The translations under genes and the position numbers were made by a program. 64,000 bases of DNA from Lysobacterales bacterium (lineage in GTDB: Bacteria > Pseudomonadota > Gammaproteobacteria > Xanthomonadales > Rhodanobacteraceae): assembly GCA_017305135.1 (NCBI GenBank), contig JAFKNA010000007.1:55441-119440 (forward strand), given 5' to 3'. Below the pieces are notes generated by a model. It was not told where the DNA came from, made no database searches, and saw only the letters and a program-made list of their open reading frames with translations. How positions within the stretch are numbered: the stretch's first letter is position 1; each line of letters opens with the position of its first letter. This document shows positions 24,543 to 57,160 of the stretch, one piece after another.

Positions 24543-24548
24543 GAGCCT

Positions 24549-25928: not shown

Positions 25929-26000
25929 AGTGAGGCCGACTGGCGGCGAAGCGGTACGCGGGTAGCATGTGCTATGCGTGACAAGCAACAGGGGGCGGCA

Positions 26001-29325: not shown

Positions 29326-30078
29326 ATGCTGGCACCCGTGAAATCGACCGCCACCCTGGCGGACCTAGCCGCCTCGACGCCGGGGCGCGGCCTGACCGTG
29401 GACGACCTGCACTTCGCGGTACGTCACAGCTCGCGCCGCAAGACGATGCAGATCACGGTGGAGCGCAACGGCGAGCTGGTGCTGAGCGCGCCTCCCGGCG
29501 TGAGCACAACCCGCCTGCGCGAGTTCGTGCTGGCCAAGCGCTTCTGGATCTACACCAAGCTGGCCGAAAGGGACCGCCTGCAGCGGCACGCGCCGCGCAA
29601 GCAGTTCGTCGGCGGCGAGGGTTTCCTGTACCTGGGCCGCAGCTACCGGCTGAAGCTGGTCGACGACCAGGATGTCCCGCTGAAACTCGCGAGCGGCCGC
29701 TTCTGCCTTCGCCGCGAAGCCCTGCCCGCCGCGCGCGATCACTTCATCCGTTGGTACGCCGAACGCGCCCGCGCCTGGCTCTCCAGCCGTGTCGCCGACT
29801 ATGAGACTCGGATGGAGGTAAATCCGGCCGGCGTGAAGGTGCAGGATCTGGGCTACCGCTGGGGATCATGCGGCAAGGGCGATTGGCTGTACTTCCATTG
29901 GAAGGCGATCCTGCTGCCGGCTCGCATTGCCGAGTACGTAGTCGTGCACGAGATCGCACATCTGCACGAGCCGCACCACACACCGGCGTTCTGGCTGCGG
30001 GTAGAGCGTGCGATGCCGGATTACGCGCAACGAAAGGACTGGTTGGCTGAGCATGGAATCGATGTCGAGGGGATCTGA
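29326..30078 (+). CDS. DUF45/YgjP-like (M48-type) metallohydrolase
   Basis: WGSCGKGDWLYFHWKAILLPARIAEYVVVHEIAHLHEPHH (HExxH). A common companion of hsdR. Confidence 0.85.
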   Translation: MLAPVKSTATLADLAASTPGRGLTVDDLHFAVRHSSRRKTMQITVERNGELVLSAPPGVSTTRLREFVLAKRFWIYTKLAERDRLQRHAPRKQFVGGEGFLYLGRSYRLKLVDDQDVPLKLASGRFCLRREALPAARDHFIRWYAERARAWLSSRVADYETRMEVNPAGVKVQDLGYRWGSCGKGDWLYFHWKAILLPARIAEYVVVHEIAHLHEPHHTPAFWLRVERAMPDYAQRKDWLAEHGIDVEGI

Positions 30079-34367: not shown

Positions 34368-36233
34368 ATGTGGTCAGATAACGAGACAACAGTTGACTAC
34401 CTAAACTTCGGTGTCGTCGCCGACGCGTGTGCGAACCTTTTACAGCAAGCTAGGGGAATGCCGCTCTCGGTCGGCATCTCCGGCGGCTGGGGGGTCGGCA
34501 AGACCTCGCTCGTCCGGATGATTGAGGGCCGACTGAAACAGGCCGATACGCCAGGGCAGAACAGCTATGTCGTCGTTACTTTCAACCCTTGGCTCTATCA
34601 GGACTTCGAGGGCGCCCGCAACGCATTGCTGCAACTCGTCGGCGACGAAATCCTGCGGCTCGCGGCCAAGGACGAGGGCCTGCTGAAGAAGGCCAAGAGG
34701 CTCCTGAAACGCATCAACCTCCTTCGACTGGCTCAATTGGGCGGTGAAGCTGCCGCAACGCTCTACACAGGCGTGCCGGTCGGCAACATCGGCGCTGCCG
34801 TCATGAAGGTGGCAGGGATCTTCGGGCTCGGTACCGGGGACGACGCCGAGGAGGGCGGGAAAGGCAAGGCGGACAAGGAGAAGGATGATGGCTTGCTCAG
34901 GCCAGCCGAACCGATATCGTTGCCCAACGAGATTCAGGCCTTCCGCAACGCCCTCGAGGAGCTGCTTGAGCAGTTGAAGGTCACGCTGGTCGTCTTCGTC
35001 GATGACTTGGACCGCTGTCTTCCGAAGACTGCCATCTCAACGCTCGAGTCGATTCGTCTCCTCCTCTTCCTAAAGCGGAGTGCCTTCGTCGTTGCGGCCG
35101 ACAACGAGTTCATTCGTGGAGCAGTACGCGTTCACTTCGAGGGCACGGGCATCTCGGGCGAGGTTGCGACAAACTACTTCGACAAGCTCATCCAGGTTCC
35201 GTTGCATGTCCCTCGTCTGGGCATCAACGAGGCGAAGGCCTACTTGGCGCTCCTGCTAATGGAGCGGGCGCATGCCGACGGCCGCTTTGACGCCAGCAAG
35301 TTCGAGGCTGCCAGGAAGGCCATTCCCGAGCAGCTGCAAACGAGCTGGAAAGGCAATGCCGTCACGACCGATTTCCTGCAGAGTCAGGTCGGTGCGGACA
35401 ATGCTGAGATGATGGCGCTGATGCAGTTGGCGGAAGGATTGGCGCCGTTGCTGACCACCTCCAGCGCGGTGAACGCAAACCCGCGGTTAATGAAGCGGTT
35501 CTTGAACACGGTGTACCTCCGGTCTGCCCTGGCTGCGCCACAAGGCATCAGTCTCGACATCCCGTCCCTCGCAAAGTGGCACCTTGTCGAACGTTGCGAC
35601 GAGACGCTGGCGAACGCTTTGGCAGCGAGGGTCACATCTGCGTCTGACGGCCGGGTACCTGCACTGCAAGCCGCAGAGGCAGCCGCGGCTGGCGGCCCCG
35701 ACGAGCACCTGCCGGAACCTTTCAAAGACGATGTCTTCACGCGCGAGTGGCTGCAATTGCGGCCCGCGCTGGGCGAGACAGACCTTCGCCCCTTGCTGCA
35801 CCTCAGCAGAGATACTGCAACGCGGGACTTTGGCGCTGACAACATGACTGCTGAAGGCCGCGCCCTCCGGGACGCTTTGGCTAGCGCAACGGCGCCAAAT
35901 GGTCCGCTGACCGAAGCCATCAAGGCGGCTGGAGCAATCCAAGCAGGGATGGCGATGGGCAAAGCATGGCAGTTGAAGGCCTCAAAGCGAACGTGGCGCT
36001 CGCTCGAGGATGTCGTGCCGCTTATCGAGCCTTGCAAGGTCTATTCAGAGCTGGCGGCCCAAGCATCAGCGCTGCTGGCTGAAGCACCAGTGGCGAAGGT
36101 CGGACCTGGCGTCATTCCCCTCCTGTACGCGCAAGCGTGGGCTCGCCCAACAGTCGACAAGTGGGAGACGGACGCGTCCGTCGACAAGCCAACCAAGGCG
36201 GCTATTCAGCAGGCAAAGAAGGGGACGCGGTAG
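34368..36233 (+). CDS. qatA: KAP-family P-loop NTPase, QatA
   Basis: ISGGWGVGKTSLV (Walker A), LVVFVDDLDRCLP (Walker B), YFDKLIQVPLHVP. First gene of the four-gene Qat arrangement. Confidence 0.9.
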   Translation: MWSDNETTVDYLNFGVVADACANLLQQARGMPLSVGISGGWGVGKTSLVRMIEGRLKQADTPGQNSYVVVTFNPWLYQDFEGARNALLQLVGDEILRLAAKDEGLLKKAKRLLKRINLLRLAQLGGEAAATLYTGVPVGNIGAAVMKVAGIFGLGTGDDAEEGGKGKADKEKDDGLLRPAEPISLPNEIQAFRNALEELLEQLKVTLVVFVDDLDRCLPKTAISTLESIRLLLFLKRSAFVVAADNEFIRGAVRVHFEGTGISGEVATNYFDKLIQVPLHVPRLGINEAKAYLALLLMERAHADGRFDASKFEAARKAIPEQLQTSWKGNAVTTDFLQSQVGADNAEMMALMQLAEGLAPLLTTSSAVNANPRLMKRFLNTVYLRSALAAPQGISLDIPSLAKWHLVERCDETLANALAARVTSASDGRVPALQAAEAAAAGGPDEHLPEPFKDDVFTREWLQLRPALGETDLRPLLHLSRDTATRDFGADNMTAEGRALRDALASATAPNGPLTEAIKAAGAIQAGMAMGKAWQLKASKRTWRSLEDVVPLIEPCKVYSELAAQASALLAEAPVAKVGPGVIPLLYAQAWARPTVDKWETDASVDKPTKAAIQQAKKGTR

Positions 36234-37096
36234 TGGGAACCTCGACATCAAGCTCGGGTGGCAAGGCCGGCTCCCCCTTCGATCCTGAGTGGCTAACACC
36301 CGAGGGATCCGCTGCGGGCACAGCCGGTGGCGATGACGCTGCTGGCGACGGAGACCAAGATGGGAGTGACGACTCCGCCGCGTCGGGCGGCGTCGACACA
36401 CAGGCCGGTCCTGGCGAGGAAGGTGCAGCAGAAGCGGCCTTCGCACCCAGTCGCAGATTCGCCGACGCGCGAACCAAGATGTCTGCCTACTTGGGCGGCG
36501 GCGGACGTGAGTTATTAAGGTCGGCCACAAAGAGCATGGTTACCAGGGGCATGGGTGGGGCGCGCCGCGCCGCTTCGACCATGCGAGGCACGGCCCAAGG
36601 CACCGGAGCCCTCGGTGAGTTCTTGGCGTCCGCCCGCGACAGGTCCAACCCTCGTGTCGTCGACTGGGTCAATCGAACTCGGCAGGCGAACCTGGCCGCC
36701 GACGACCTCATTTTGGAGCTGGTCAAGGAGGTCATGCCGGGAACCGGCAGCGTCGACGACGAATCGCTGCGCAATGCCGCAGCAGAAGCACTTGGGCAAC
36801 TCTATGAGTTGAACCCCAATGTCGACATCTTCGACCTCACCGACGCGCAGATTCACGAAGTCATGGCCATCACGATTGCCAACGACGTCTGCAATCGCAT
36901 GGACCTTCAGCTCGGGCAGGCATACGAGAAGCTGAAGTACAACGCGCTACAGATTCAGCTGTATCGGAAAGACGTGAAGGAATACGTGCAGTCGGCGGTT
37001 CGCGTCGTCATGGAGCGACTCGGCGCGGCGGGACTCGACCCCAAGCGTCTCGCTCGTGAAGTGCTCCAGTCTGCAATGGAGGTGTTCGCATCATGA
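36233..37096 (+). CDS. qatB: QatB (unknown function)
   Basis: GTG 36233 overlaps the qatA TAG (TAGTG). Disordered acidic/Gly N-terminus, then a helical domain. Assigned by position in the Qat operon. Confidence 0.75.
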   Translation: MGTSTSSSGGKAGSPFDPEWLTPEGSAAGTAGGDDAAGDGDQDGSDDSAASGGVDTQAGPGEEGAAEAAFAPSRRFADARTKMSAYLGGGGRELLRSATKSMVTRGMGGARRAASTMRGTAQGTGALGEFLASARDRSNPRVVDWVNRTRQANLAADDLILELVKEVMPGTGSVDDESLRNAAAEALGQLYELNPNVDIFDLTDAQIHEVMAITIANDVCNRMDLQLGQAYEKLKYNALQIQLYRKDVKEYVQSAVRVVMERLGAAGLDPKRLAREVLQSAMEVFAS

Positions 37097-38358
37097 TGAA
37101 GGTGCTTTGCACGTCCGTTGACCATCTGCCCGCGACACTCGCGCAAGGCGAACGTGCCTTCACGCTGTTCAAGAGCGCCAAGCGTGCTGGCGTTGGAACC
37201 ATCGCGCAGGGCTGGCGCGGGTCGCTGAAGCGGAAGGGCTTTGCGCCAAGCGTCCAAGCTTGGGACTTCGCGCAGTTCTGCCTGTCCGTATGCGCGGCTG
37301 ACCTCAGCTGCCCACGGAACAACAGCGCCGACGGCTGGACGCGAGCCATTGAGCTGACGGTCGCGCTGCACGAACCTCTTCGGTGGGCGCCATGGAAGGC
37401 CCATGTTGAGGCCCTGCTAAAGGTCCTGACTGGGGACTACTGGACGCTCAACTTTGTAGGCGGAGGTGTTGCGCCACCGAGCGGAAGGCCGCAGCCACTG
37501 GCGCACGATTGCGTTTGCCTGCTGTCTGGGGGACTCGACAGTCTCATCGGGGGCATCAACCTGGTTACCGACGGGCGTCGTCCGGTATTCGTCTCGCAGC
37601 TGGCGCACGAAGACTCTGAGCGGCAGCGCCGATACGCCACCTTGCTCGGCGGGGGCGCGACCCACATGCAGTGGAGCCACGGCATCAGCTTTTCGGGTAG
37701 CCGAGAACCATCGACGCGAGGTCGCTCACTGGCGTTCTATGGGTTCGCAATTATGGCCGCGTCAAGGATTGCAGGCGCACCGGTGCAGGTCTTCATCCCC
37801 GAGAACGGCTTCATCTGCGTCAACCCGCCACTGGTCCCTGGCCGCGTATCCAGCCTTAGCACCCGCACGACGCACCCGATGTTCATCGCCGAGCTGCAGG
37901 AGCTCCTTGATGGCCTCGGCATCGCCGTAAAGTTCGAATTGCCCTATCGATTCAAGACGAAGGGCCAGATGCTCCGCGAGTGTGCGGATCAGACCTTGCT
38001 GAGCACCGTAGCCGCTGACTCAACGAGCTGCGGACGATTCCGAACGTACAACCGTGTGCATTGCGGACGCTGCGTTCCCTGCATGATTCGTCGGGCTGCG
38101 TTTTTGGCCTGGGGGCCGCGGCGCGACACGACCCGGTACAAGTTCCCGTCCGTCGTTGGCTCGGACAAGTCGAGTGGACCGGATGACCCGATGGCCGCGG
38201 CGCTGGCGGTACTGTCTGTGCGCGAAATGGGGTTGGACCGCTTCCTCGGCGCCACCCTGGCCTTTGCTTCGCCCGCTGAGCGGGCCACGTATCGGCAGGT
38301 GCTCCAATCGGGGCTCAACGAGCTTGAGGCGCTACTACAGGCAGATGGGCTTCTATGA
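37093..38358 (+). CDS. qatC: QueC-like PP-loop ATPase, QatC
   Basis: ATGA overlap with qatB. PP-loop CLLSGGLDSLIGG and Cys cluster CGRFRTYNRVHCGRCVPCMIRR. Confidence 0.88.
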   Translation: MMKVLCTSVDHLPATLAQGERAFTLFKSAKRAGVGTIAQGWRGSLKRKGFAPSVQAWDFAQFCLSVCAADLSCPRNNSADGWTRAIELTVALHEPLRWAPWKAHVEALLKVLTGDYWTLNFVGGGVAPPSGRPQPLAHDCVCLLSGGLDSLIGGINLVTDGRRPVFVSQLAHEDSERQRRYATLLGGGATHMQWSHGISFSGSREPSTRGRSLAFYGFAIMAASRIAGAPVQVFIPENGFICVNPPLVPGRVSSLSTRTTHPMFIAELQELLDGLGIAVKFELPYRFKTKGQMLRECADQTLLSTVAADSTSCGRFRTYNRVHCGRCVPCMIRRAAFLAWGPRRDTTRYKFPSVVGSDKSSGPDDPMAAALAVLSVREMGLDRFLGATLAFASPAERATYRQVLQSGLNELEALLQADGLL

Positions 38359-39095
38359 TGGACTTTCACTGCCACCTTGACCTCTACCCCGGGGCAAGGG
38401 AGGTCTATCGTGAAGCGGCTCAGCGCAACGAGTTCACATGGTTGGTGACCACGAGCCCGAGGGCGTTCGCAGCCACATCGCGAGCGTTGGAGGCCTATCC
38501 CGCAGTGCTCATCACGCCTGGTCTGCATCCAGAGATTGCGCACGAGCGAGCATCAGAACTGGACCTGCTGCTAGAGCAGATTGCTGGGGCGAAGGGCGTC
38601 GGTGAGGTAGGCCTTGATGGGTCGCCACGGTTCAAGCCTCATTACGACGTCCAGCGTCGCATCTTTAGGGCGGTTATCGCGCGCTGCGCTGAGTTGGGTG
38701 GCCGCACGCTCAGCATTCACTCCCGGCGCGCAGTGAGAGATGTACTGGCCGACCTGGAGCGATATCCGAACTTCGGGACCGCTGTCTTGCACTGGTTCTC
38801 GGGATCCTCGGCTGAGCTCAAGGCAGCAGCAGCCCGTGGATGCTGGTTCAGCGTCGGGCCAGCGATGTGCGCTTCTGCGAGCGGGCGTGCGTTGGCGGCA
38901 GCCATGCCCCGCGACCGAGTCGTGCCGGAGAGCGATGGCCCCTTTGCCAAGATTGAAGGCAAGCTGGTAATGCCTTGGAGCGCGAGGCAGACAGCCGAAG
39001 CGCTGAGCCCTCTGTGGGGGCTATCTCGCAACGCGACCATCGACACCATCACACGAAACGGACGCAAGTTGGTGCGCCTTATTGAGAAGACGTAG
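38355..39095 (+). CDS. qatD: TatD-family metallo-hydrolase, QatD
   Basis: ATGA overlap with qatC. Motifs MMDFHCHLD, GEVGLDG, SIHSR, HWFSG. Confidence 0.9.
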   Translation: MMDFHCHLDLYPGAREVYREAAQRNEFTWLVTTSPRAFAATSRALEAYPAVLITPGLHPEIAHERASELDLLLEQIAGAKGVGEVGLDGSPRFKPHYDVQRRIFRAVIARCAELGGRTLSIHSRRAVRDVLADLERYPNFGTAVLHWFSGSSAELKAAAARGCWFSVGPAMCASASGRALAAAMPRDRVVPESDGPFAKIEGKLVMPWSARQTAEALSPLWGLSRNATIDTITRNGRKLVRLIEKT

Positions 39096-39227: not shown

Positions 39228-40235
39228 TCAAGAATCAAGTGCAACACGTGAGCGGTAATCAGCCATTTCCTGGGCCAGCGCTTCTTCGGGGGTTTTCCAG
39301 CCCAGCGTCTGGCGGGGACGGCCGTTCATGAGACGCGCGATGTCATTGAGTTCGGTCTGGCTGACCTGCGACAGGTCGGTGCCCTTGGGCAGGAACTGGC
39401 GCAGGAGACCGTTGGTGTTCTCGTTGCTGCCGCGCTGCCAGGGGGCGTGGGGATCGGCGAACCAGATGTCGATGTTGAGGCGCTTGGCCAGGTCGGCATG
39501 GCAGGCCATCTCGCTGCCGCGGTCGTAGGTCAGGCTCTCGCGCAGGAACGCAGGGAGCTTGCGCATCTGCCGGGTGAAGCCCGCGAGCGCGTCCTGCGCG
39601 GTGCAGCCGTCCATGCGGCATAGCACCACAAAGCGCGTCTTGCGCTCGACCAGGGTGCCGACGGCGGAGCGGTTGTACGCGCCCTTGATGAAGTCGCCCT
39701 CCCAGTGGCCCGGGAGCTTGCGCGCGGACACGTCTTCGGGTCGGTGCACGATACGCAGTTCTTCGGGGACGAAGCCGCCGCGCGCCGCGGTGGTGCGTCG
39801 TCGCCCGCGGGTCTGCTTGGCCTGTCGCAGCGCCTCGACCAGCCCCTTCTTCAAGGCGCCACGCGGGTGCGCGTAGATGGCGGCGTAGATGGTCTCGTGG
39901 CTGACCTGCCGGGCAGGTTCATGCGGGTACATGGTGCGCAGTCTGGCGGCAATCTGCTGGGGCGACCAGCGCCAGTAGAGCAGTCGATCATGCACGTGCT
40001 GGTACAGCCAGGTGCCACGGCCAAGCTTGTGCCTTCGCACACTCCGGGCGCGACGACAGCGGTAGCCATGCGCCGCGACGGTCGCGTCGTATCCGCCACC
40101 AGATTGATATGTCCGAACCGGTTCCTCACAGCAAGAGCCCGTGCCTCCTGCATTTGAGACTCGATATTCTGCACCTGAGCGGGATACGAGCGTTCGATAA
40201 TGTAACTGGCCGCATAATTGCATTACTGACCACAT
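39228..40235 (-). CDS. IS30-family transposase
   Basis: WSPQQIAARL, GHWEGDFIKG, TLVERKTRFV, LTYDRGSEMA, FADPHAPWQRGSNENTNGLLRQFLPKG (DDE). The N-terminal HTH region looks degenerate and the start is uncertain. The element ends were not resolved. Confidence 0.85.
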   Translation of the reverse strand: MWSVMQLCGQLHYRTLVSRSGAEYRVSNAGGTGSCCEEPVRTYQSGGGYDATVAAHGYRCRRARSVRRHKLGRGTWLYQHVHDRLLYWRWSPQQIAARLRTMYPHEPARQVSHETIYAAIYAHPRGALKKGLVEALRQAKQTRGRRRTTAARGGFVPEELRIVHRPEDVSARKLPGHWEGDFIKGAYNRSAVGTLVERKTRFVVLCRMDGCTAQDALAGFTRQMRKLPAFLRESLTYDRGSEMACHADLAKRLNIDIWFADPHAPWQRGSNENTNGLLRQFLPKGTDLSQVSQTELNDIARLMNGRPRQTLGWKTPEEALAQEMADYRSRVALDS

Positions 40236-40861
40236 ATTTTGCGTGGCCAGAGAACTTGGCTCTTGTTGCCGAACGAGGACATCGCTGAAAATCCTAGCTT
40301 CTTAATAAGCGGCCTATAGTCACTTGTAAAATCTTCCAGGCTCTTCATCGGCTTGCTGACGTGAGTTGGCTTATCCCGCCATTCAACGTAGACGGAGTGT
40401 ATCAGGGCGAGATCGAGCAAAGTGGACTCCAGCCAATCTACTTCTTTTGTATATCCTGAAACAAACGTAGCGCCTGACGCCTCTTGCAAACTCACGAGCA
40501 ACTTGCGACGAAGGCCGTCATCAGGTTGTAGTATGTGGCAACAACCAAAATGAAGAAATCCTATGCGTTGGGGGAAGGCGCTCTTGAGAATGTCAAGGAG
40601 GGTCGCCATAGTGATCCTGCTCTTCTTGTCTGATGGCTCGAGAAGCCCCACTTCTCCGTGACAGGCTATGTAGACCAGAGCCCTTTGGCGCGCAGGAATT
40701 TTCGCCAGGTAATAGGCGAGGTCCTCACCATTGCGAAAGCTTCGGTGGTGAACGCGTGTTCCGGGGAATGTTTGTTCGTAGGCTTGCATAAATTTGAGCA
40801 TCTGTGGCGGCTCTGTCGCCTTCTCCCAGGCGCCTTCAAACATGTAGATGTTAGCGATCAC
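40223..40861 (-). CDS. small caspase/CHAT-like protein (His-Cys dyad), function unknown
   Basis: GTG 40861 sits 5 nt after AGGAG. ALVYIACHGEVGLL (His) and IGFLHFGCCHIL (Cys). GC content is visibly lower than the surroundings. The last codons overlap the 5' end of the IS30 transposase ORF (its longest-ORF start is 40235). Confidence 0.65.
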   Translation of the reverse strand: MIANIYMFEGAWEKATEPPQMLKFMQAYEQTFPGTRVHHRSFRNGEDLAYYLAKIPARQRALVYIACHGEVGLLEPSDKKSRITMATLLDILKSAFPQRIGFLHFGCCHILQPDDGLRRKLLVSLQEASGATFVSGYTKEVDWLESTLLDLALIHSVYVEWRDKPTHVSKPMKSLEDFTSDYRPLIKKLGFSAMSSFGNKSQVLWPRKICGQ

Positions 40862-40884: not shown

Positions 40885-41076
40885 TCAGGTTGTGATTGAG
40901 TCTCGCAGGTGCGTAGGCAGGAGACCCACAATGACGAGTCCGCGCATCTCGTCGTAATGGAGAAGCCGGAACTGCACTGTCTGGTCGTAGCTCCCACTGG
41001 AAGTTTTCGCGTGGAGATCAAGCGTGATCCGACGCGCTTCGTGCGTGCGCCGGTAGATTTCGCGGTAGTGGCACAT
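40885..41076 (-). CDS. hypothetical 63-aa ORF upstream of the caspase-like gene
   Basis: Only ORF geometry supports it (23 nt upstream of the next start). No motif recognised. Confidence 0.25.
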   Translation of the reverse strand: MCHYREIYRRTHEARRITLDLHAKTSSGSYDQTVQFRLLHYDEMRGLVIVGLLPTHLRDSITT

Positions 41077-41400
41077 GGCGGTTGCATCGGCCGTCGCGAT
41101 ACCTCGCCGGCGCTCTGTTCTTGCCGGTGCTTGGGTGACTCATCATCAGGATGACGGCGGCGCATCGTTCACGTTCTCGTGCGTTAGGAGGTGAATCACT
41201 TGTTAGGCAAAAGCGGTCTCCCGGAGGCGGATTCCCGAGCGGACTTGATGGCCTGTGGCAGCAGTACGGGCCGCCATTCCCCCGTGGACCTCTGCCCAGC
41301 TTTCGAGCTCCTCGCAAGACTCTGGAAAGACGGGCGCTTGCGGCACGTGCTCGAACTCTTGGTCCCATGCGGCCCAAGCTTCGGCGAGCTGGCGTTGCCG

Positions 41401-44400
41401 TCATTCAGTAAAACTCGCTTCGTGGGTTGCTTCCTTCCGAATGGCCCGCCTGACGCGATCCAGCACAGCATCCCGGTCGCGCAGCCACTCGAGGCCATCG
41501 ACGTGGAACACCCGCCAGCCTCGATTCCGGAGGAGGGCCGCGCGTTGCGTGCGGCGATACGGTCCGTCGTCGTCGACGCCTTCGTCGCACAGGATCGCGA
41601 TGCGGTAGGGCGTGCCGTCCGACTCACCCTCGATTGCGACGTCCACCTTGAAGGGTGACGCTCCCACGTTCGAAGTGGCTTCGTGACCGCTGGCCAGCAG
41701 CAGGTCGACCAGCTGCCCTGCGAGCGGAACATGGCCCGGCAGCGATGAGGAAATCCCCTCTGGAGCGGAGCGCTGGGGTCCAGAGCGAACCAGGTCGAGG
41801 GTGCGGGCAGCCTGGCTCCGGGCTCCCGATGAAAGGTGGAAAACGTACTCGAGATAGGCCTTGAACAGGCGCGGCCCATCGTTCTTGGCGCGTGCCACGC
41901 TCAATTGGTCAGGGTGGAAGGAGGCCACGACGGCCACTTCCTGGCGCGCCCTCGAGACCGCGACGTTGAGGCGGCGCTCGCCGCCGCGCTGGCCCAGGGG
42001 TCCGAACCTGGCGGGCACATAGTGCTGCACGCCGCGTGTCTTGTGTACCCGCTCGACCGGGGCGTGGCCCAACGAGAAGATGATCACGTCCCGCTCGTCG
42101 CCCTGGACACTCTCGATGTTCTTCACGAACGGGCGGTCGTCGAGCTGCTCGGCTGCATCGGCGGCTGTGAACAGGCGCGCGAACTGCTCATCGGATGCGC
42201 GCCGGCTGTCGATGGCGTCCAGTATGGCGAGGCGCTGGGAAAGGTTGAATGTGACGATTCCCGCGGTGGGCTTGTGGGGTCGGCCGAGGATCTCCTGCAG
42301 CACGTCGACGACCTTCTCGGCCTCGACCTCGTTCCTGCCGTCCTCGTAACGTCCGTCCGGAACGGCAATCCAACGCAACGCGGGGGGAACCTGTGGCCTG
42401 GATGATGCGGGCGCCGTCAGGAGCGTCCCTTCATACATGGAGTGGTTGGAGAACGCGATCAGGTCCTCGTCGCGGCAGCGGTAATGCCAGTCGAGGCGTT
42501 TCGCCGGCACTCGCTGGCGGGCGAGCGTCAACAGCGATTCCGACTCCAGGACCCCGTCGACCGGATCTGCCTCGTCCGCTTCCATCTCGCCACGGCCGGC
42601 CTTGAAGAAGGCGGTCGGCGGCATCTGCCGGTCGTCTCCCGCGATGACCACACGCCGCGCGCGCAGCAATGCAGGAAACCCGTTGGCGACGGTGCATTGC
42701 GAGGCTTCATCGAAGATCACGACGTCGAAGATCGGCTTGCGGGGGAACAGCACGGCAAGTGTCTCGGGTGAGACCAGCCACACCGGAATGGCGTCGAAGA
42801 CGCCGCGCTCCGCGTAGTTGCGGACGAAGGTGCGCAGCGGCAGGAGCCTGCGCTGCTTGGAAACCTCGCGCAGGAGATCCTCGCGCGTGGCCTGTTGCGG
42901 GGTCCGACGCGCGCGCTTCTCGGGGGGAGGCACCTGCAGGAGCGGCGCCGAATTGACCCGGTCCATGACCCGGACCCGGCTTGCGAGGGTGCGTGCGCCC
43001 AGTATTTCGCTCAGCTCCAAGGTGGCATGGTCGTCCACCGACCCCGTGCGGAGCTCGCGTGGCAGTGCATCCTCGGCGGACTCCAGGCGGCGCAGCGCCC
43101 AGGCCTTGAGCAGGACATCCGACCAGTGTGGCACGGCGGCATCGTGGCAACTCGCGATCGCTTCCGCGCCACGAGGGTCGACGGCATTCGCCTGGTCCAG
43201 CAAGCGGTCAAGTTCCGCAACGCGTGCGGCATCCTTCGCAAAGCGGGCATGCAGCAACCGCAGTTCCGCTGCAGGCGTGCGAACGTCAACAAGCTGGAAG
43301 ATGGCCTTCGCCGCTGCGATTGCAGCTTCATGCTTGCGCCAGGCCTGCGCAGACGCGAAGCGCTCGATCACGGTCTTGTGCCATGCGCCTGGATCGTGCG
43401 GCAGCCAGGCCTGCACGGATTCCAGCACGCTCCTGGATCGACGCAGGTCGCGGATGCCTTCCTGCGCTTCGTGGACCGCCTCGAGCGATCCCGCGATCTG
43501 CACGGCATCGCCGTTCAACAACGGGGCGAGCTTCGCCTCACGGGCGGCGGCCTGGTCGCGGCGTTCCCACAACGATGCCAGCCGCAAGCGCTGATGGATG
43601 TCCTTCAGACAGGCGACATCGAGCCGGCGCCCAACCGCATCCGGCCAGAAGTTGGCCAGCTGGCGGGTGACCATCGCACGCTGACGCCACCACTCCATGG
43701 ACAAGAAACGAAGGGGCGAACCGCTTCGCCCGAGGAGGGCGACCACGGCGGCCCTGAACTCCCGGGTGGCGCTTCCGCGGACCGGCGCCGGGAATGCGCT
43801 CCAGGCCGCCGATTCACCCATCCACTCCGCCCGCAGTGCCAGCAGCGGCTCGCACGGGTCATCGGCTGCCTCCAGCAATGCGGGGAGATGCGCAAAGTCG
43901 CTCTTCAGCGAGCGCAGCGCCTTGTTGCTCGCCAGGAGTGCCTCGACCCCGGTTGCTGCTTGCGCGGGATCGACCCCCTGCTGCTTTGCCATCGCCTCGA
44001 CCGCATGGGCAGATTCTGCAGCGGTGGCGAGCAGCCTGGCCATCTCCGCGCGTTCATCCGGAGACGTGCCGGCCAGGGATCGCCGTGTTGCCGTGGCGCT
44101 CGGGCGCCACGGGCTTCCCTCCGCCAGGAGGTCGGCCCAGGTGCGCCCCACGGCAGCGAGCTTCCCCAGCTTCAGCGCGGAGGCGACCGGGAGGTGACCG
44201 AGGCGCGGCATGGCCGCAGGCACGGGCGCGGCCTGCCCCGCGGCGAAAACGGCCAGATGGCCAAGGCTGGGCTCACCCTCCTGGCGGTGGCGAAGATGCC
44301 TGATGCGTTTGCGCATGCGCTCGGCAAGCGCGTCGGGAGAAGCGTCCGGTGCGCCTGCGGGGCCAGGTTCGGTCATGCCTTCCAACCGCGATCGGATCTT

Positions 44401-47085
44401 CCGGAAGAGTTCCTTGCGATCGTCCACCGGATCGTGGACGACGCCGAAGATCTCCTCGAAGCCGCTGCCGGCCAGGCGATTGGCCACGACGTCGAGCGCC
44501 GCGCGCTTCTCGGAAACCACCGCCACGCGCTCACCACGTGCCAGCGCGTCGGCAACCAGGTTGACGATCACCTGGCTCTTGCCGGTTCCGGGTGGCCCGT
44601 CCACCACCAGGGCCGGGACCTTGCTGGCCAGGCGAACGACTTCGACCTGCGAAGGATCGGCGCCAATCACGAGGGCCGGCGCGGCGCCGTCCATGGCCGT
44701 CGCGGGCTCTGCAGGTGCGGCAGGGCGCATCGACGCCGGGAGGATCTCGTTCGCGCAACCGAGCAACGCGGACGCGTCAGCGCCCCGCTGCCCGAGCTCG
44801 GAAAGCAGCTGTTCGTAATCGTGGAGGAGTTCGGACCGGGATTGGGGGAACAATCCCAGTACGACGCACCCCTCCTGCTCCAATCGGCGGCCCTTCCATG
44901 CGGGCACATCCTCGTCGAGTGCGTCGAGGGCACGGAGGTCCGTATCGAGGGCGAACACATCGATGCCGATCCGCTTCAGGTGATCGGTGATCGCTGCAAG
45001 CCCGACCGCAGGATCACCTGCGTTGGTATCCAATTCCAGGGCGAGTTCTTCCGAGAGCGGAATCCCGGCTTTCAGGTGGATGAGCCGGAGCAGAGCCTGG
45101 TTCGCGACGGCGGGCTCGTCGCGGACCTGCACCAAGGCCATTCCGCCGCCGCCGTCCAGCTCGAGTTCCACCGGCTGCAGCATGAGCGGTGCGCGGACTA
45201 CGTAGCCATCGATCACGCCGCGCACGAAGCCCGTGCCGAGGTAAAGGTCGCGCGCCCCCGATTCTTCCCGCCGCGCATGGTGTTCGCGCCTGAGTTCCAC
45301 GAGTTGCCGAAGCAGCGACGCCGCGTCACGCGATTGTCCGGTCTGCTCGCCATCGACGAGTACCACGCGCCGTCCTGCCTGGGCCAGGGCGAGGCAACGC
45401 TCCGCGTGGCCGACCGAAACGCGGGACAAGGCATACAAATCGAACGAGCGCCCCACGCGACACTCGCGCAGACGGATGGAAGGACTCCGCCCGTCGCCGC
45501 TGATCAGCTCATCACGCAGGCGCTGGATGGCCCGCTTCAATTCGTCTGGAGCCGGCGGCGCCTCCCTGGGCTTCTCCGGGCCTGCATGCTCAACGACGAG
45601 CGTGAATTCCTGGTCCAGATCGATGACCGGGAGCTCGGCGTCGCACTTCAAGCCGGCTTGCCGGAGCGCCGCCTCGATCCTTGCCAGTGCAGGCCCGGTG
45701 CGTCCGGTTTCGCCCAGCAGGCGGAGCAGGTGGCGCAAGGTGGCCCCTGCGCTGCCCCGCCGGACGACCGAAGCCAAGTACGCATCCAGGGCTTCGACGG
45801 TGTCCTTCGCTCGAACGGGCAACGGTTTGGCCTGCTGCTGCTCTCGCTCATCAATGGCGATCCGGCGTAAGGTGGGCCGCAGCATCGCCTTGAAGAGCTC
45901 TTCGCCATCGAGCAGCCGGCCGATCTCGACAATCCGCGCGAACTCCCGCGATTCGGCTACGCCGTCGGACGCCAGGACGTGCATCAGCAGGTTGAACAAT
46001 GGCCGGAGGAAGCCGGGTCCCCACGCGCGAGCAACGGGAGCGAGCTCCTCGAGCCGCTGCGCGGCGTGCTCGGGCGCCAGGAAACTTCGCCAGTCCGGTA
46101 CGAGCGAGGCGAAGGTGCGCTCGATGACCTCGGCCTCCTCGTCGCTGAGCACCTCGTCGGCTACCGCCACCAGCACCGCGCACGCGAGTGCAAGTTCGTG
46201 CAGCTCGACCGGCGGCTTCTCCAGATACTGGAACGATCCGTCCAAACCCGGCTTGCGAAGGACGCGCTCGATCAGCGCGTCGACCTCGTCGATCGGGAGG
46301 GTTCCGGGCCCGAGCCCGGTCAGCTCGTGGTACAGGTCCGATTCGCTGAAGAGCCAGGCGGCCCACGCCCTGACGCCGTGCTCGGGATGGGTAACACCTT
46401 GCGCGGTGTCACCGCCGGCCAGGCAGCCTTCGACGAGTTCGCGGCATTGGGCGAGATAGCCTGCCGTGTCCCCTCCCAGGTCATCGGCCGGGAGGCCGGT
46501 CGTGGCGACCATCTCGAGGCGCAGGAGGGCATCAAGGTCCCGCGCCGCCAACAATCCGTAGCGGTCCGCGGTCAACTCACGCGCCATCGAAAGCGTGGAA
46601 GCCAGCGATGCGAGATCCCCGGGAACGCCTTCCGCGAGCGCGAGGTGGGTGGCCAGCGCGCTCACCTCCGCGTGGGGGGAGTCGGGCCCGTGGGCAATGA
46701 AATGCCCCAGCTCGTGGCCGATCACCGCCCTCAGGGCACCCTCGTCAAGCAAGGAAAGCAGGCGTCCCTGCACCTCGACCAGGATCGGGTGCCGGAGCAG
46801 GTGAATCGCGGCGTTCTCGCGACCGGCGGATTGGTAGATCTCGATCGGGGCCACCAAGCCGAAGCGGCGGCAGATGTCCTCTGCGCAGGCGGTCGCGGTG
46901 GGCGCCATGGTCGGCGTGAGCCGGACCGCCTTGCCGAGGAGTTGCCGGCGGATGACGTCCGGCTCCGGCAAGGCGCGCTCGGCCGAGAGGAACGCTATTT
47001 GCGGAATCCGTGCGATTCGTTCGAGGAGCGAGAGCTCCAAAGCGACGCGAACACGGTCGCTCCGCGCGATGACTTCAGCGTCCAA
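41401..47085 (-). CDS. 1894-aa multidomain protein: M48-like peptidase + TerB-like + DUF4011 + SF1 (Upf1-like) helicase + C-terminal DUF559/Vsr-like REase
   Basis: TTG start behind GGAAGGGAAG. HELGH at aa 124-128 (46702-46716). TerB-like LVAVADEVLSDEEAEVIERTF and LMHVLASDGVAESREFARIVEIG. DUF4011-like LYLGTGFVRG...APLMLQPVEL. Helicase motifs GPPGTGKS (44575-44598), VIFDEASQ, IAGDDRQMPP, LDWHYRCRDEDLIAFSN and NVAVSRARQ. C-terminal KVDVAIEG...RIAILCDEG...RRTQRAALLRNRGWRVFHV. Confidence 0.9.
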   Translation of the reverse strand: MDAEVIARSDRVRVALELSLLERIARIPQIAFLSAERALPEPDVIRRQLLGKAVRLTPTMAPTATACAEDICRRFGLVAPIEIYQSAGRENAAIHLLRHPILVEVQGRLLSLLDEGALRAVIGHELGHFIAHGPDSPHAEVSALATHLALAEGVPGDLASLASTLSMARELTADRYGLLAARDLDALLRLEMVATTGLPADDLGGDTAGYLAQCRELVEGCLAGGDTAQGVTHPEHGVRAWAAWLFSESDLYHELTGLGPGTLPIDEVDALIERVLRKPGLDGSFQYLEKPPVELHELALACAVLVAVADEVLSDEEAEVIERTFASLVPDWRSFLAPEHAAQRLEELAPVARAWGPGFLRPLFNLLMHVLASDGVAESREFARIVEIGRLLDGEELFKAMLRPTLRRIAIDEREQQQAKPLPVRAKDTVEALDAYLASVVRRGSAGATLRHLLRLLGETGRTGPALARIEAALRQAGLKCDAELPVIDLDQEFTLVVEHAGPEKPREAPPAPDELKRAIQRLRDELISGDGRSPSIRLRECRVGRSFDLYALSRVSVGHAERCLALAQAGRRVVLVDGEQTGQSRDAASLLRQLVELRREHHARREESGARDLYLGTGFVRGVIDGYVVRAPLMLQPVELELDGGGGMALVQVRDEPAVANQALLRLIHLKAGIPLSEELALELDTNAGDPAVGLAAITDHLKRIGIDVFALDTDLRALDALDEDVPAWKGRRLEQEGCVVLGLFPQSRSELLHDYEQLLSELGQRGADASALLGCANEILPASMRPAAPAEPATAMDGAAPALVIGADPSQVEVVRLASKVPALVVDGPPGTGKSQVIVNLVADALARGERVAVVSEKRAALDVVANRLAGSGFEEIFGVVHDPVDDRKELFRKIRSRLEGMTEPGPAGAPDASPDALAERMRKRIRHLRHRQEGEPSLGHLAVFAAGQAAPVPAAMPRLGHLPVASALKLGKLAAVGRTWADLLAEGSPWRPSATATRRSLAGTSPDERAEMARLLATAAESAHAVEAMAKQQGVDPAQAATGVEALLASNKALRSLKSDFAHLPALLEAADDPCEPLLALRAEWMGESAAWSAFPAPVRGSATREFRAAVVALLGRSGSPLRFLSMEWWRQRAMVTRQLANFWPDAVGRRLDVACLKDIHQRLRLASLWERRDQAAAREAKLAPLLNGDAVQIAGSLEAVHEAQEGIRDLRRSRSVLESVQAWLPHDPGAWHKTVIERFASAQAWRKHEAAIAAAKAIFQLVDVRTPAAELRLLHARFAKDAARVAELDRLLDQANAVDPRGAEAIASCHDAAVPHWSDVLLKAWALRRLESAEDALPRELRTGSVDDHATLELSEILGARTLASRVRVMDRVNSAPLLQVPPPEKRARRTPQQATREDLLREVSKQRRLLPLRTFVRNYAERGVFDAIPVWLVSPETLAVLFPRKPIFDVVIFDEASQCTVANGFPALLRARRVVIAGDDRQMPPTAFFKAGRGEMEADEADPVDGVLESESLLTLARQRVPAKRLDWHYRCRDEDLIAFSNHSMYEGTLLTAPASSRPQVPPALRWIAVPDGRYEDGRNEVEAEKVVDVLQEILGRPHKPTAGIVTFNLSQRLAILDAIDSRRASDEQFARLFTAADAAEQLDDRPFVKNIESVQGDERDVIIFSLGHAPVERVHKTRGVQHYVPARFGPLGQRGGERRLNVAVSRARQEVAVVASFHPDQLSVARAKNDGPRLFKAYLEYVFHLSSGARSQAARTLDLVRSGPQRSAPEGISSSLPGHVPLAGQLVDLLLASGHEATSNVGASPFKVDVAIEGESDGTPYRIAILCDEGVDDDGPYRRTQRAALLRNRGWRVFHVDGLEWLRDRDAVLDRVRRAIRKEATHEASFTE

Positions 47086-47331
47086 CTTCCCTTCCCCTGT
47101 AACACCCCTCCCGGGTTGCTTCTAGCAGGATGCGGCCGCCTGCGCAACGTACCGCAGCTTCGCGGATGAAAGTCAGATGGCGAGTTCAGCGCGCGCAAAG
47201 ACCAGGAGCGCTCGGTCGCGGACCATCAGGGGAAAACTGGGCGGGGCTTGTCCATCCAAGCAGGGACCGGTGACCCATCAAGGAGGTTATGGTGGCATGC
47301 GCGACGCAATCGCCAAGCGTGCGCCGATGCC

Positions 47332-47618: not shown

Positions 47619-48125
47619 CTAAAACAGGCGTTCAGCCGGGCGGGGACCTGGGCATCCCGGAGATTCTCGCAGCTGCCGGACGAGCCTGACTGTCCCGAGC
47701 CCACTGCTCCAGTTCGGGAAGGCTTGTCGCGGCGACCGGCGGTCTGGCGGGCGCTGGCCGAGTGCGGGATTGAGAGAACAGCAGCGCTCCAGTCCCGGCA
47801 CCGTTGGAGAGCCTGAGCGGCTCAGGCGGAGTTTTGAGAGGCGCGTGCCCGGCTCGAGCAGCACATGGCCCCACGCGTCAGGCCCAGCATCGGCCAGCAC
47901 GCCCGGTACTCCATTGTTGACGCGTACATGCATGTCGCCCTGGAGGCGGCGCAGATTGATCGGGTGCAGCTCGTACCCCTCGGCGCTGGCAAGCCAGTCC
48001 GGGGCATATCGAAATGTTCCGGCGCCCTCGGCCCACTGGACGCGCCCGCAGAGCACCGGCTCCTTTTCCAGCGGTCCTTCCGGGTTTGCAAGCGGCGGTG
48101 CAAAGACGTAGAGCTCAGAAGTCAT
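47619..48125 (-). pseudogene. hipA: hipA toxin remnant (N-terminal coupling domain only, frameshifted)
   Basis: LYVFAPP...GTFRYAPDWL...GVPGVLADAGPDAWGHVLL matches HipA_N. It continues in another frame (RLSNGAGTGALLF). The kinase domain is absent. Confidence 0.7.
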
Positions 48126-48429
48126 CGCGGCTCACGACGCGGGCAGGAAGCCGCTGCCGTTCGAGGGCTTTGCCGATCGGATCGTCCTCAACACCTTGCA
48201 CGACGCTCCGCATCATGTCCGGATCGAAGACGGCCAGGATCTCAAGGAACGCACTCAGGGCCAGCCCGGGATGCCCAGCTTCCGCCTTGAGTACCGTTTC
48301 CCGGCTGAGGCCGGCCCGTTCCGCAACCTGCTGTTGGGTCAGTCGTCGCCGTCGCCGTGCAACACGCAGCTCCTGCCCGATCTGGCGCACGGCGCGCAAG
48401 ATGTCTGGTGATGCTGATCCCGATTTCAT
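48115..48429 (-). CDS. hipB: HipB-like XRE antitoxin/regulator
   Basis: ARRRRRLTQQQVAERAGLSRETVLKAEAG (HTH). Overlaps the hipA remnant start. Confidence 0.8.
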   Translation of the reverse strand: MKSGSASPDILRAVRQIGQELRVARRRRRLTQQQVAERAGLSRETVLKAEAGHPGLALSAFLEILAVFDPDMMRSVVQGVEDDPIGKALERQRLPARVVSRDDF

Positions 48430-49540: not shown

Positions 49541-49854
49541 CGTGTCCGGCAGGTCATGCCATTGTACTTCCGCTCGGAGCAACACGGGTGCGTGGCTTGC
49601 GGATGAAGCGGCGCAACGAGCAGGTGAGTGCCGCTCGATGGGGCCGCTGCTGTGCCGCTGGGTCCGATCCGCTGATGGGAACGCCATGTAGGAGATGACA
49701 TCCCTCCGCGGTGCTATCCATGAGGTGGGCGCGGCTTCAGGAAGCTCGGGAAGTAGCTGCCCCGACGGAGCTTTGGGATCCGCGGCTCGGTGTGGCCGGC
49801 CCCATCCCGATGGAGGTCGCGGTTAGCATTGCGCTGCACCAGACGGGTCGGACT
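49541..49854 (-). pseudogene. IS256-family transposase remnant (left part, internally deleted)
   Basis: QRNANRDLHRDGAGHTEPRIPKLRRGSYFPSFLKPR (IPKLRxGSYFPSFL signature). In another frame, MAFPSADRTQRHSSGPIERH is a C-terminal-type motif. Confidence 0.6.
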
Positions 49855-51193
49855 CTGAGGTTTCCCCACGAACTTCCGTTCAGGCTCAGAGGCTTACCGC
49901 TTCGTAGGGTGGAAAGAGATGCGCGCATGGCGCAGTCTTCCAGGTGACGAACCAACGAAGGCTGCAGGCCCATGCGCGCCCAACGAGGATTGCAGAAGTG
50001 CCTGTCCGAGTGTCTGGAAGCCATGCACGCGATGCGGTGCCGAGTGCTGCTGCGTGCGGTGGAGGCGCTGATCGTGGGCCGCAGGTTGACCCTGATGGAT
50101 GTCGCACGCAGCTGGCCCGGCGCCGAACGGGTACGGGCGCCGCTGAAGGCCTTCGACCGCTTGCTCAGCAACCATCACCTGCACGCAGAGCGCGAGCGGC
50201 TGTATGCAGGAATGGCCCGATGGTTGTTGCGCGGCGAGCAACCGGTGATCGTCATCGACTGGTCGGACCTCAAGGCCGACAAGTCCTGGTGCCTGCTGCG
50301 CGCCGCGGTGCCCGTTGGCGGGCGCACCCTGCCGGTGCTGGACATGGTGTTTCCGGGCTCGCAGGCCGGCTCGCCCGCAGCGGAGCAACGCTTCCTGCAG
50401 CGCTTGCGCCATCTGGTTCCGGTGGGTGCCACGCCCATCCTCGTGACCGATGCCGGGTTCCGCAGCCCTTGGTTCCGCGCCGTGGAGAAGCACGGCTGGT
50501 ATTGGCTGGGCCGCCTGCGCCACCGCACCCTGATCAAGCCGGTGGACGCGCATGGCGATGACCAGTGGGTGCCCTCGCGTGCGCTGTACGAGCTGGCGGG
50601 CACACGGCCGCGCGACATGGGCCTCATGGATACGGTGCGGGGCCAACCCTGGACGTGCCGGGTGGTGTTGTATCGAAAGGCGCAGCGGGGCCGGAAGCAC
50701 CGCACGCTCCGGGGTGGCGCCGTGCGCAGCAGCCAGAGCCGCAAGTCTGCGCAGCGCGAACGTGAGCCTTGGCTGCTGGTGGCTTCCCCCGCGCTGGGCC
50801 TGAGCGCCCGCAACCTGGTGACGCTCTACGGCCGCCGCATGCAGATCGAGTCCTCGTTTCGCGACCTCAAGTCGCACCGCTACGGGCAAGGCTTCGAGGA
50901 CAGCCTCACCCGCACCGGGGCGCGCATCGAAATCCTTCTACTGGTGAGCGCGCTTGCCGCATTCGCCTGCTGGCTCGCCGGCCTGGCGAGCGAAGCACTG
51001 GGCATCGCGCACTGGCTCTCGCCCTATCGCACCATCCGCAAGCTCTACTCGATCCTTCGCATCGGCCGTGAGGCGCTGATCCGTGGCTGGCCGCTTGAGC
51101 GAACGACCCAGTGGCTCAGCCGCCTGCACGCCTTGCCCGATTCCGTTCTTGATCAGATGCAGGCCCCCGCGTGACTTCGTGGGGAAACCTCAG
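49855..51193 (+). mobile_element. IS10-like (IS4 family) insertion sequence, apparently intact
   Basis: 1339 bp. The 18-bp terminal inverted repeat CTGAGGTTTCCCCACGAA lies at 49855-49872 and inverted at 51176-51193. The 9-bp direct target duplication GGTCGGACT lies at 49846-49854 and 51194-51202. Confidence 0.9.
49972..51174 (+). CDS. IS4-family (IS10-like) DDE transposase
   Basis: 400 aa. Colinear with IS10 transposase as remembered: VIVIDWSDLK, ILVTDAGFRSPWFRAVEKHGWYWLGRLR, YGRRMQIESSFRDLKS. Confidence 0.93.
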   Translation: MRAQRGLQKCLSECLEAMHAMRCRVLLRAVEALIVGRRLTLMDVARSWPGAERVRAPLKAFDRLLSNHHLHAERERLYAGMARWLLRGEQPVIVIDWSDLKADKSWCLLRAAVPVGGRTLPVLDMVFPGSQAGSPAAEQRFLQRLRHLVPVGATPILVTDAGFRSPWFRAVEKHGWYWLGRLRHRTLIKPVDAHGDDQWVPSRALYELAGTRPRDMGLMDTVRGQPWTCRVVLYRKAQRGRKHRTLRGGAVRSSQSRKSAQREREPWLLVASPALGLSARNLVTLYGRRMQIESSFRDLKSHRYGQGFEDSLTRTGARIEILLLVSALAAFACWLAGLASEALGIAHWLSPYRTIRKLYSILRIGREALIRGWPLERTTQWLSRLHALPDSVLDQMQAPA

Positions 51194-51288
51194 GGTCGGA
51201 CTCTTCTCCGTGCCCGCCACCGTATTCGCCTTCCAGCGCCATCAGGCAGTGGCTGCCAAAGGCGATCCCCTCCCCGGCAGATCGGTGT
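51194..51288 (-). pseudogene. IS256-family transposase remnant (right part)
   Basis: The reading frame continues across the IS10 target site (..VAGTEKSPTRLVQRNANRD..) and carries stops and frameshifts. Confidence 0.4.
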
Positions 51289-57026: not shown

Positions 57027-57160
57027 TTCCTTCGACCAGAAACCCCCGCCAGTCATGGGTTTCCGGGCTTTTTCGGGTTCATTCCAAGAAGGTCGTGTTG
57101 TGCCACGTCATGCGCTAAAGCGTCTTGCATGGCGCGTGATGTGTGTTGTACTGTCGTGCC

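Follow-up and report, generated by a model that had tools for sequence, protein, structure and literature searches.

What function can be assigned to a protein that carries a putative metallopeptidase and a TerB-like domain in front of a large helicase-nuclease? This question is raised by a 64,000-nucleotide stretch of DNA from a Lysobacterales bacterium (GenBank assembly GCA_017305135.1, contig JAFKNA010000007.1, positions 55,441 to 119,440; the whole stretch is referred to as the window, and positions are counted from its first letter), in which an open reading frame (ORF) on the minus strand (41401..47085) encodes such a protein of 1894 amino acids. With a probability of about 60%, the gene specifies a self-contained, single-polypeptide defence protein directed against phages or mobile DNA, in which the M48-TerB part senses or regulates. 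The closest curated models are all anti-phage systems (PDC-S37, E-value 6e-150; ProA, 532 bits; Hhe, 307 bits), and the most economical reading groups the window protein with Hhe, ProA and PDC-S37 as a single-gene defence protein, the N-terminal module of which differs between clades, as is usual for the sensors and regulators of defence systems.

The ORF is complete and extends from a TTG start codon to a TGA stop codon, as judged from the ORF listing and from homolog coverage. Its G+C content at third codon positions (GC3) amounts to 0.80 compared with 0.48 at second positions (GC2), a coding-like pattern. A purine-rich run, GGGGAAGGGAAG (47086..47097, minus strand), which abuts the TTG codon on its upstream side, was read by eye and may represent a Shine-Dalgarno-like sequence. 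The metagenome protein P0001 has a length of exactly 1894 residues and is 97% identical to the window protein, and more than 110 homologs cover 97–100% of its length. Since these proteins match over the full length, the ORF is neither truncated nor frameshifted and its start is correctly placed. An initial annotation, made from the letters of the DNA, had described a single ORF of 1894 residues and had named its interruption as a finding that would refute the description; the full-length homologs confirm the former and do not bear out the latter. Two overlapping ORFs were rejected as genes. A 991-residue ORF that runs antisense (42895-45870) is a shadow of the 1894-residue gene, attributable to high GC, and a 128-residue ORF (41018-41404), whose ATGA overlap with the stop codon had suggested a coupled partner, is probably not a gene, because its translation is rich in arginine and proline, its GC2 exceeds its GC3 and it is absent at the ortholog loci.

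The N-terminal part of the protein (about residues 45–262; 46300..46953, this and all following domain and motif coordinates being on the minus strand) comprises an M48-like zinc-peptidase domain without a transmembrane segment. With Pfam gathering scores used as cut-offs for all domain calls, Peptidase_M48 (PF01435) matches residues 105–237 with 25.2 bits, above its gathering score of 20.3. The domain contains a HELGH zinc-binding and catalytic motif (His124, Glu125 and His128, followed by His132; 46702..46716), an ELTADRYG motif in which Glu170 presumably provides the third zinc ligand, as in gluzincins (46555..46578), and a THPEHGVR motif (46369..46392) of the M48-type pattern THPxxxxR. The underlying patterns HExxH, ExxAD and THPxxxxR are those of M48 peptidases of the HtpX and BepA type. 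When the window protein is aligned with 48 homologs, which share 33–69% identity in the N-terminal part, His124, Glu125, His128, His132, Glu170, Thr172, Ala173, Asp174, Arg175, His233, Pro234, Glu235, His236 and Arg239 are invariant. Regular-expression checks found HExxH in 119 and ExxADxx(G/A) in at least 115 of the 120 homologs listed, and HExxH, ExTADR and THPEHxxR hardly vary, if at all, among these proteins at identities down to 35%. The strict conservation of the three motifs, including the catalytic glutamate, argues for retained catalysis in the lineage of the window protein. An AlphaFold2 (AF2) model of residues 1–590 has a predicted local distance difference test score (pLDDT) of 84.5, with values mostly between 80 and 97 in the M48 domain, and the M48 part of this model gave weak Foldseek matches to the minigluzincins 4qhf/4jix (selecase, jannalysin), to BepA and to ZMPSTE24.

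The peptidase domain is followed by a TerB domain (about residues 290–420; 45826..46218), which was recognized by Pfam and profile matches at the level of the family and is composed of two ADGxxxxxE-type half-repeats. The acidic pattern of this twice-repeated motif is invariant (Ala307, Asp310, Glu317 and Glu322; Asp374 and Glu381). No TerB match was obtained in the Pfam scan of the full-length window protein, and residues 283–425 scanned alone reach 17.9 bits with PF05099 (E-value 0.004), under the cut-off of 24.4 bits. PF05099 is matched by all 28 of 28 aligned homolog segments (best E-value 9e-11), and the family profile of the region found only three matches in the PDB, all of them TerB-like (2h5n, 2jxu and 2ou3). 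One of these, 2h5n, was also retrieved by Foldseek with the N-terminal model, with a probability of 0.96 and an E-value above 1. Moreover, the hhalign alignment with a family of standalone M48-TerB proteins, described below, runs through the TerB region. The homology of residues 290–420 to TerB is therefore supported at the family level, not by the window sequence alone. Between the TerB domain and the helicase half, residues 426–500 (approximately; 45586..45810) tentatively form a small α/β domain of winged-helix-like appearance, as judged from the AF2 secondary structure (pLDDT about 90) and from weak Foldseek matches only, to BlaI, PadR and eWH domains. The initial annotation had proposed the same order of M48 motifs, TerB-like region, Upf1-type helicase and endonuclease-like tail, and Pfam and the family profiles agree with it; the motifs that it quoted lie at residues 124–128 (HELGH), 170–177 (ELTADRYG), 309–317 (ADEVLSDEE) and 373–381 (SDGVAESRE). 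What it took for two TerB-like repeats are, in fact, both halves of one TerB domain.

The predominant C-terminal part of the protein begins with a DUF4011 region (about residues 515–700; 44986..45543), which opens with the conserved sequence LRDxLxSGDGRSPSxRL and contains the invariant residues Arg524, Leu527, Gly532, Ser534 and Arg538; PF13195 matches residues 588–667 with 36.9 bits (cut-off 22.2). The adjacent superfamily 1 (SF1) helicase consists of two RecA domains, the first of which is split. Its first part (44386..44688), recognized by AAA_11, AAA_30 and AAA_19, carries the Walker A motif GPPGTGKS (residues 830–837; 44575-44598), and its second part (42586..42885), recognized by AAA_11, carries motif II, DEASQ (Asp1459, Glu1460 and Gln1463), and a GDxxQMPP sequence. 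Inserted between both parts are about 500 exclusively helical residues (about 901–1400; 42886..44385; pLDDT 80–95 in the AF2 model), which are the least conserved stretch of the protein. The AAA_11 match, 59.4 bits in total (cut-off 27), is split by the insertion, with profile positions 213–255 of 257 aligning to residues 1452–1493. RecA2 (AAA_12, PF13087; residues 1524–1722; 41920..42516) scores 57.2 bits (cut-off 27). The protein thus possesses all the hallmarks of a Upf1-like SF1 helicase, namely AAA_11 and AAA_12 matches above their cut-offs, GPPGTGKS and DEASQ motifs that are invariant in the family, and a Upf1-like fold. With an AF2 model of residues 700–1894 (m684b27652006, pLDDT 88), Foldseek retrieved Upf1, Aquarius, Senataxin/Sen1, IGHMBP2, Dna2, nsp13 and ZNFX1 at E-values of about 1e-11 to 1e-7, the best group (Upf1, Aquarius, Senataxin, IGHMBP2 and Dna2) lying between about 1e-11 and 1e-9. 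A sequence search of the PDB found no close relative of the whole protein among solved structures, and its matches to IGHMBP2 and Sen1 are confined to the second part of RecA1.

The C-terminus is formed by an MTES_1575/DUF559-like tail of restriction-endonuclease fold (about residues 1788–1882; 41440..41724), identified by Pfam (PF18741, residues 1792–1882, 45.8 bits; cut-off 38.2) and by the AF2 model, in which residues 1788–1863 (approximately) build an α-β-β-β-α-β core (pLDDT about 90) typical of PD-(D/E)xK nucleases. Two configurations of the putative nuclease site are found in the family: Asp1815, Gly1820 and Gln1847 in the subclade of the window protein, to which an aspartate at position 1815 is restricted (28 of 121 sequences), and Pro1815, Asp1820 and His1847 in the majority. 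The acidic residues Asp1834 and Glu1835 are conserved in both.

More than 115 protein clusters share this architecture end to end. They stem from Xanthomonadales-like Gammaproteobacteria, Betaproteobacteria, Myxococcota and Verrucomicrobiota, and are annotated in the databases as hypothetical, DUF4011, AAA or ‘TerB family’ proteins. A HMMER search with residues 700–1894 yielded 6877 representative clusters at E-values of up to 1e-30, of which only the top 32 to 35 or so combine a Walker A motif near residues 830–950 with an M48-TerB N-terminus; the remainder of the superfamily are mostly plain DUF4011 helicase-nucleases of 1200–1450 residues. A neighbour-joining tree built from 132 core sequences unites all 32 representatives with a long N-terminus in one clade, from which it follows that the M48-TerB module was acquired once. 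A distribution survey of M48-TerB among DUF4011 helicases, which had been suggested in the initial annotation, leads to this one clade of about 32 of the 6877 clusters. Segment by segment, the conservation of residues 41–400 amounts to 0.53–0.75, near that of the helicase blocks (about 0.6–0.8), the M48-TerB module being an integral part of the protein. N-termini have been swapped elsewhere in the superfamily: P0195 has a plain DUF4011 beginning and P0200 (1929 residues) carries a tetratricopeptide-repeat array instead of M48-TerB. Also in this superfamily, P0032 and P0033 (Nannocystis, 2239 residues) have a DnaQ-like exonuclease domain (PF00929) ahead of M48-TerB. A gene that seemed to be split into a 547-residue M48-TerB and a 1523-residue helicase part (P0124; L001 10001-16175, from a metagenome-assembled genome of Propionivibrio) was set aside as a probable assembly frameshift, since NrdD is likewise fragmented in the same assembly. 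At the species level the clade is rare and patchy, occurring in about 27–33 of 185,579 species representatives from four phyla, and extends over Rhodanobacteraceae, Fulvimonas, Hydrocarboniphaga, Betaproteobacteria, Myxococcota, Bradymonadia and Verrucomicrobiota. A search for homologs of the N-terminal module among 72,556 plasmids, 50,697 phages and the contigs of IMG/VR found none.

Searches with residues 1–440 also retrieved gene fragments and free-standing proteins of about 400 residues that carry both PF01435 and PF05099. At least 2364 clusters belong to this standalone family, almost all with a length of 399 residues; all of those listed possess both domains and are annotated as ‘M48 family metalloprotease’ or ‘tellurite resistance protein’. 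When one genome per species was scanned, about 45 standalone genes came to light, most of them in marine Gammaproteobacteria. By hhalign, the profile of the standalone family aligns over its whole length with residues 4–400 of the window protein (probability 99.9, E-value 3.9e-36), with THPEHGVR opposite STHPFSPLR, and against the PDB the same profile matches the HtpX homolog 3cqb (E-value 9e-4), the M48 entry 3c37 and the TerB-like 2ou3 (E-value 1e-4). On account of these matches, the helicase carries at its N-terminus the fused copy of a cytosolic M48-TerB protein that is complete in itself. Across 45 loci (L033-L079) the standalone genes have no conserved neighbour. One of them, P0146 (JGI 3300056388), is immediately preceded by the genes of an XPB-like helicase and a DUF790/Bax1 nuclease. 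Among more distant relatives of the N-terminal domain, P0144, P0145 and P0151 give overlapping SprT-like Pfam matches.

No conserved partner gene was found across 27 ortholog loci, apart from antisense shadow ORFs, and for this reason the protein is regarded as a single-gene unit. The island in which it is located is linked to a tRNA-Met (15421-15497, plus strand), probably as its site of integration; the adjacent 469-residue ORF (16417-17826) shows no integrase domain. The tRNA gene separates housekeeping genes, among them a ferritin-like gene (14124-14594), from the defence island. Inside the latter, a TraI_2-like gene (18093-19286) is followed by a type I restriction-modification operon (19472-29321; hsdS 21999-23348, hsdR 25974-29321), a YgjP-like metallopeptidase gene directly after hsdR (29326-30078, plus strand), McrBC (30084-33829, plus strand; McrB-like AAA_5 protein 30084-32528, McrC 32525-33829) and a complete QatABCD system (34368-39095, plus strand; PADLOC E-values of 1.7e-115, 6e-30, 3e-91 and 4e-72 for QatA, QatB, QatC and QatD, respectively). 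The gene had been described initially as sitting alone, which is true of its immediate neighbours only. Two ORFs between hsdS and hsdR (23418-24542, 374 residues; 24549-25928, 459 residues; both on the plus strand) match neither Pfam nor PADLOC; genes embedded inside restriction-modification operons are a recognized source of new defence candidates.

Between QatD and the gene under study, a transposase with a Pfam rve integrase core (39228-40235), called IS30-like after the initial annotation, is followed by an orphan ORF of 212 residues and lower GC content (40223-40861, minus strand). The caspase-like label given to the latter in the same annotation finds no counterpart in Pfam or PADLOC. 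Upstream of the gene are located a 168-residue ORF (47619-48125, minus strand), by eye a possible HipA-N-like remnant and without Pfam match, an overlapping HTH_31/HTH_3 gene (48115-48429, minus strand), and an insertion sequence (IS) assigned by eye to the IS4 type (49841-51207) with 32-nucleotide inverted repeats (49841-49872 and 51176-51207). A DDE transposase gene is found further away (57143-58801).

A related locus, on a contig with 96–97% identity in DNA (L080), is collinear with the window from 49856 to 40100. It is without the IS4-type element, and a Z1/DUF4420/DUF6339/Dcm cluster takes the place of the IS30-like element and the Qat system, the IS30-like element marking the point of divergence. 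The counterpart of the orphan ORF has 280 residues there (10071-10913) and precedes this cluster; the orphan ORF is not kept beside other orthologs. The flanks of the gene are in the course of reshuffling by IS activity. Just upstream of the gene on this contig, Xre_MbcA_ParS_C antitoxin-like genes were observed. Another ortholog adjoins AbiEii and yet another a type I-F CRISPR-Cas system, FitAB and a NERD helicase, so that the window gene and three relatives are located in defence islands.

A working model can be proposed on the basis of the domain composition. The effector half (about residues 515–1894) would use ATP, by means of Lys836 and Asp1459/Glu1460, to translocate on nucleic acid as Upf1-like helicases do, and the tail of restriction-endonuclease fold could then cut or mark the substrate. 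The N-terminal 420 residues or so most likely constitute a sensing or licensing module, in which TerB may act as a metal- or membrane-responsive sensor that reads an infection-linked cue, as proposed for Shango, Bunzi and Dionysus. The zinc peptidase might transduce this cue by cleaving an inhibitory or linker segment of the protein itself or a phage-encoded protein, thereby activating the helicase-nuclease. A specific version, in which a metal flux or a membrane-proximal event perceived by TerB would cause the M48 domain to cleave its own linker or winged-helix segment, or a DNA-bound phage protein, and thereby license motor and nuclease, is speculative and has a limited chance of being correct. 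If it holds, prokaryotic immunity would have its first SF1 helicase-nuclease licensed by a metalloprotease, and a function would be provided for the abundant free-standing M48-TerB proteins.

Several observations weigh against a role in defence or against parts of the model. Two of six inspected contexts have ordinary genes instead of defence genes nearby, and PADLOC, run on 112 ORFs that neighbour the gene at the 27 ortholog loci, gave nothing informative, with myxobacterial Ser/Thr-kinase matches dominating. The curated equivalog cut-offs of Hhe and ProA are both missed, and literature searches, which also covered PLuB and DUF4011, found no paper on the fusion seen in this clade, on ProA or on PDC-S37. 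In P. aeruginosa, the gene of a DUF4011 helicase belongs to the core, non-mobile genome (PMC10250203), from which it follows that members of the superfamily need not all be defence genes. The standalone M48-TerB relatives look housekeeping-like, with a uniform length of 399 residues and no conserved defence neighbours. At the level of the domains, every Foldseek match of the N-terminal model has an E-value above 1 and is suggestive, not significant. The divergent members P0158, P0159, P0166 and P0178 are without HExxH and keep TerB, so that peptidase chemistry is not universally required; the replacements in divergent clade members read GHQLGH, AHALAH, ACELAH and GGESGN, with fold and TerB retained. 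Moreover, position 1815, the first acidic residue of the nuclease core, is a proline in 81 of 121 family members, which renders nuclease activity uncertain across the family, and the substrate may be either DNA or RNA.

The main rival explanation, which is considered unlikely, assigns the protein to the repair or quality control of nucleic acids, where the metalloprotease would clear blocking or cross-linked proteins and the helicase-nuclease would process the substrate, in the manner of SprT/Wss1 together with helicases. Such a role would fit the best structural matches, Upf1, Senataxin, Dna2 and IGHMBP2 being repair or surveillance enzymes, the core status of the DUF4011 helicase in P. aeruginosa, the SprT-like Pfam matches of the three distant relatives and the two ortholog contexts of housekeeping appearance. 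It would also fit the standalone gene following the XPB-like helicase and Bax1 nuclease; this neighbourhood, however, is a single case among standalone genes without a conserved neighbour. The rare and patchy occurrence of the clade is not that of a conserved core function, the nearest curated models are anti-phage without exception, and the window gene and three relatives are found among defence genes and IS elements.

Slightly less probable still is a defence helicase-nuclease in which the M48-like domain serves as a non-proteolytic scaffold or binding module, either as a pseudo-enzyme or as an autoinhibitory clamp, and TerB alone is regulatory. The divergent members that replaced HExxH yet keep fold and TerB would be explained in this way, no cleavage site or substrate can be deduced, and the M48 score is barely above its cut-off (25.2 versus 20.3 bits); against this stands the strict conservation of the three M48 motifs, catalytic glutamate included, which extends from the window protein itself to 115 or more of the 120 homologs. 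Finally, the gene could travel on a mobile island as cargo that benefits this element, by exclusion of competitors or by addiction, rather than the anti-phage immunity of the host. The IS30 and IS4 elements, the toxin-antitoxin remnants and the TraI_2-like gene in a tRNA-Met-linked island would be in line with this, as would flanks that differ through IS activity between relatives of 96–97% identity. The module is missing, however, from the plasmids, phages and IMG/VR contigs searched, and the systems immediately adjoining are classic host defence systems; this is the least probable of the explanations, and its distinction from defence is also partly semantic.

Comparison with catalogued systems places the preferred reading, a single-gene defence protein, in a wider context. 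The best PADLOC model is the candidate system PDC-S37 (PDLC05009; E-value 6.3e-150, 499.5 bits), which aligns to residues 741–1889 with profile positions 225–1345 of 1550, leaving positions 1–224 and 1346–1550 unmatched. Like the window gene, PDC-S37 is a single-gene helicase-nuclease, and helicase core, helical insertion and nuclease tail are all covered by the match; its first 224 positions, in contrast, are too few for an M48-TerB module of about 430 residues, and the system itself is only a candidate. ProA (NCBIfam NF058533) scores 531.9 bits, far from its equivalog cut-off of 1500, with residues 588–1889 aligned to profile positions 453–1710 of 1903 and the first 452 and last 190 or so positions unaligned. 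Both share DUF4011, SF1 helicase, nuclease tail and a similar overall length, but the N-terminus of ProA is not detectably M48-TerB.

Hhe, reportedly described by Gao and colleagues in 2020 as a single-gene defence system, likewise combines DUF4011, a Upf1-like helicase and an endonuclease tail of the Vsr/DUF559-like type in one large polypeptide. Only the C-terminal 480 residues or so align, however: NCBIfam NF042953 gives 307.4 bits (cut-off 2000) for residues 1403–1883 against profile positions 1231–1681 of 1797, the PADLOC model (PDLC02194) covers only residues 1406–1884, and the model is without M48-TerB. The Hhe-like architecture claimed in the initial annotation is therefore correct at the level of the superfamily only, PDC-S37 and ProA being nearer. 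An anti-hhe gene is reported to be encoded by a phage (bioRxiv 10.1101/2024.04.14.589459). The cut-offs of ProA and Hhe are likewise missed by ten other superfamily members, with ProA scores of 467–722 bits (510–722 bits for the eight tested from outside the clade); a ProA equivalog was sought among these ten representatives and none reached 1500 bits. ProA and Hhe are accordingly narrow families, to which the clade is no closer than the rest of the superfamily. A looser likeness to Nhi and Mokosh, suggested at first, was not substantiated: among PADLOC matches with E-values of up to 1 there is no model of Nhi, the Mokosh proteins MkoA and MkoC match only residues 1450–1748 or so (E-values 1.7e-28 and 7.5e-21), and Pfam detects no PLD domain. 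The N-terminal 420 residues indeed lie outside the models of Hhe, ProA, PDC-S37, Mokosh and Nhi, as had been supposed. Their description as new is half right: no paper on the fusion was found, and public databases already contain the full-length architecture, uncharacterized, in more than 115 clusters. The clade is a widespread, uncharacterized branch of the Hhe/ProA-like helicase-nucleases, absent from the defence catalogues and literature searched.

Outside defence, the two RecA domains resemble in fold and motifs those of Upf1, IGHMBP2, Senataxin/Sen1, Aquarius, Dna2 and ZNFX1, but these SF1B helicases are eukaryotic RNA or DNA surveillance enzymes without M48-TerB, DUF4011 or MTES_1575, and the identity is 12–22%. 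The standalone M48-TerB proteins are homologous to residues 4–400 and share the three M48 motifs and TerB; they differ in being unfused, abundant and mostly from marine Gammaproteobacteria. Should the protein be a plain Hhe-like gene with a decorative N-terminus, it would merely add one more subfamily to the defence catalogues. Hhe-type helicase-nucleases are validated anti-phage systems, and a conserved M48-TerB addition would offer a concrete handle on their regulation, besides pointing to thousands of uncharacterized stand-alone M48-TerB proteins.

Shango (SngA), Bunzi (BnzA) and Dionysus (DinB) are validated defence systems with TerB domains, for which a membrane- or metal-sensing role has been proposed (bioRxiv 10.1101/2025.09.30.679545). 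No model of these three was among the PADLOC matches of the window protein with E-values of up to 1. Common to them and the window protein is a TerB-family domain in combination with ATP-dependent or lethal effectors; unlike the latter, they are multi-gene systems without M48 peptidase and without DUF4011 helicase-nuclease. The clade described here would thus link TerB, so far associated with Shango, Bunzi and Dionysus, to a different class of effector.

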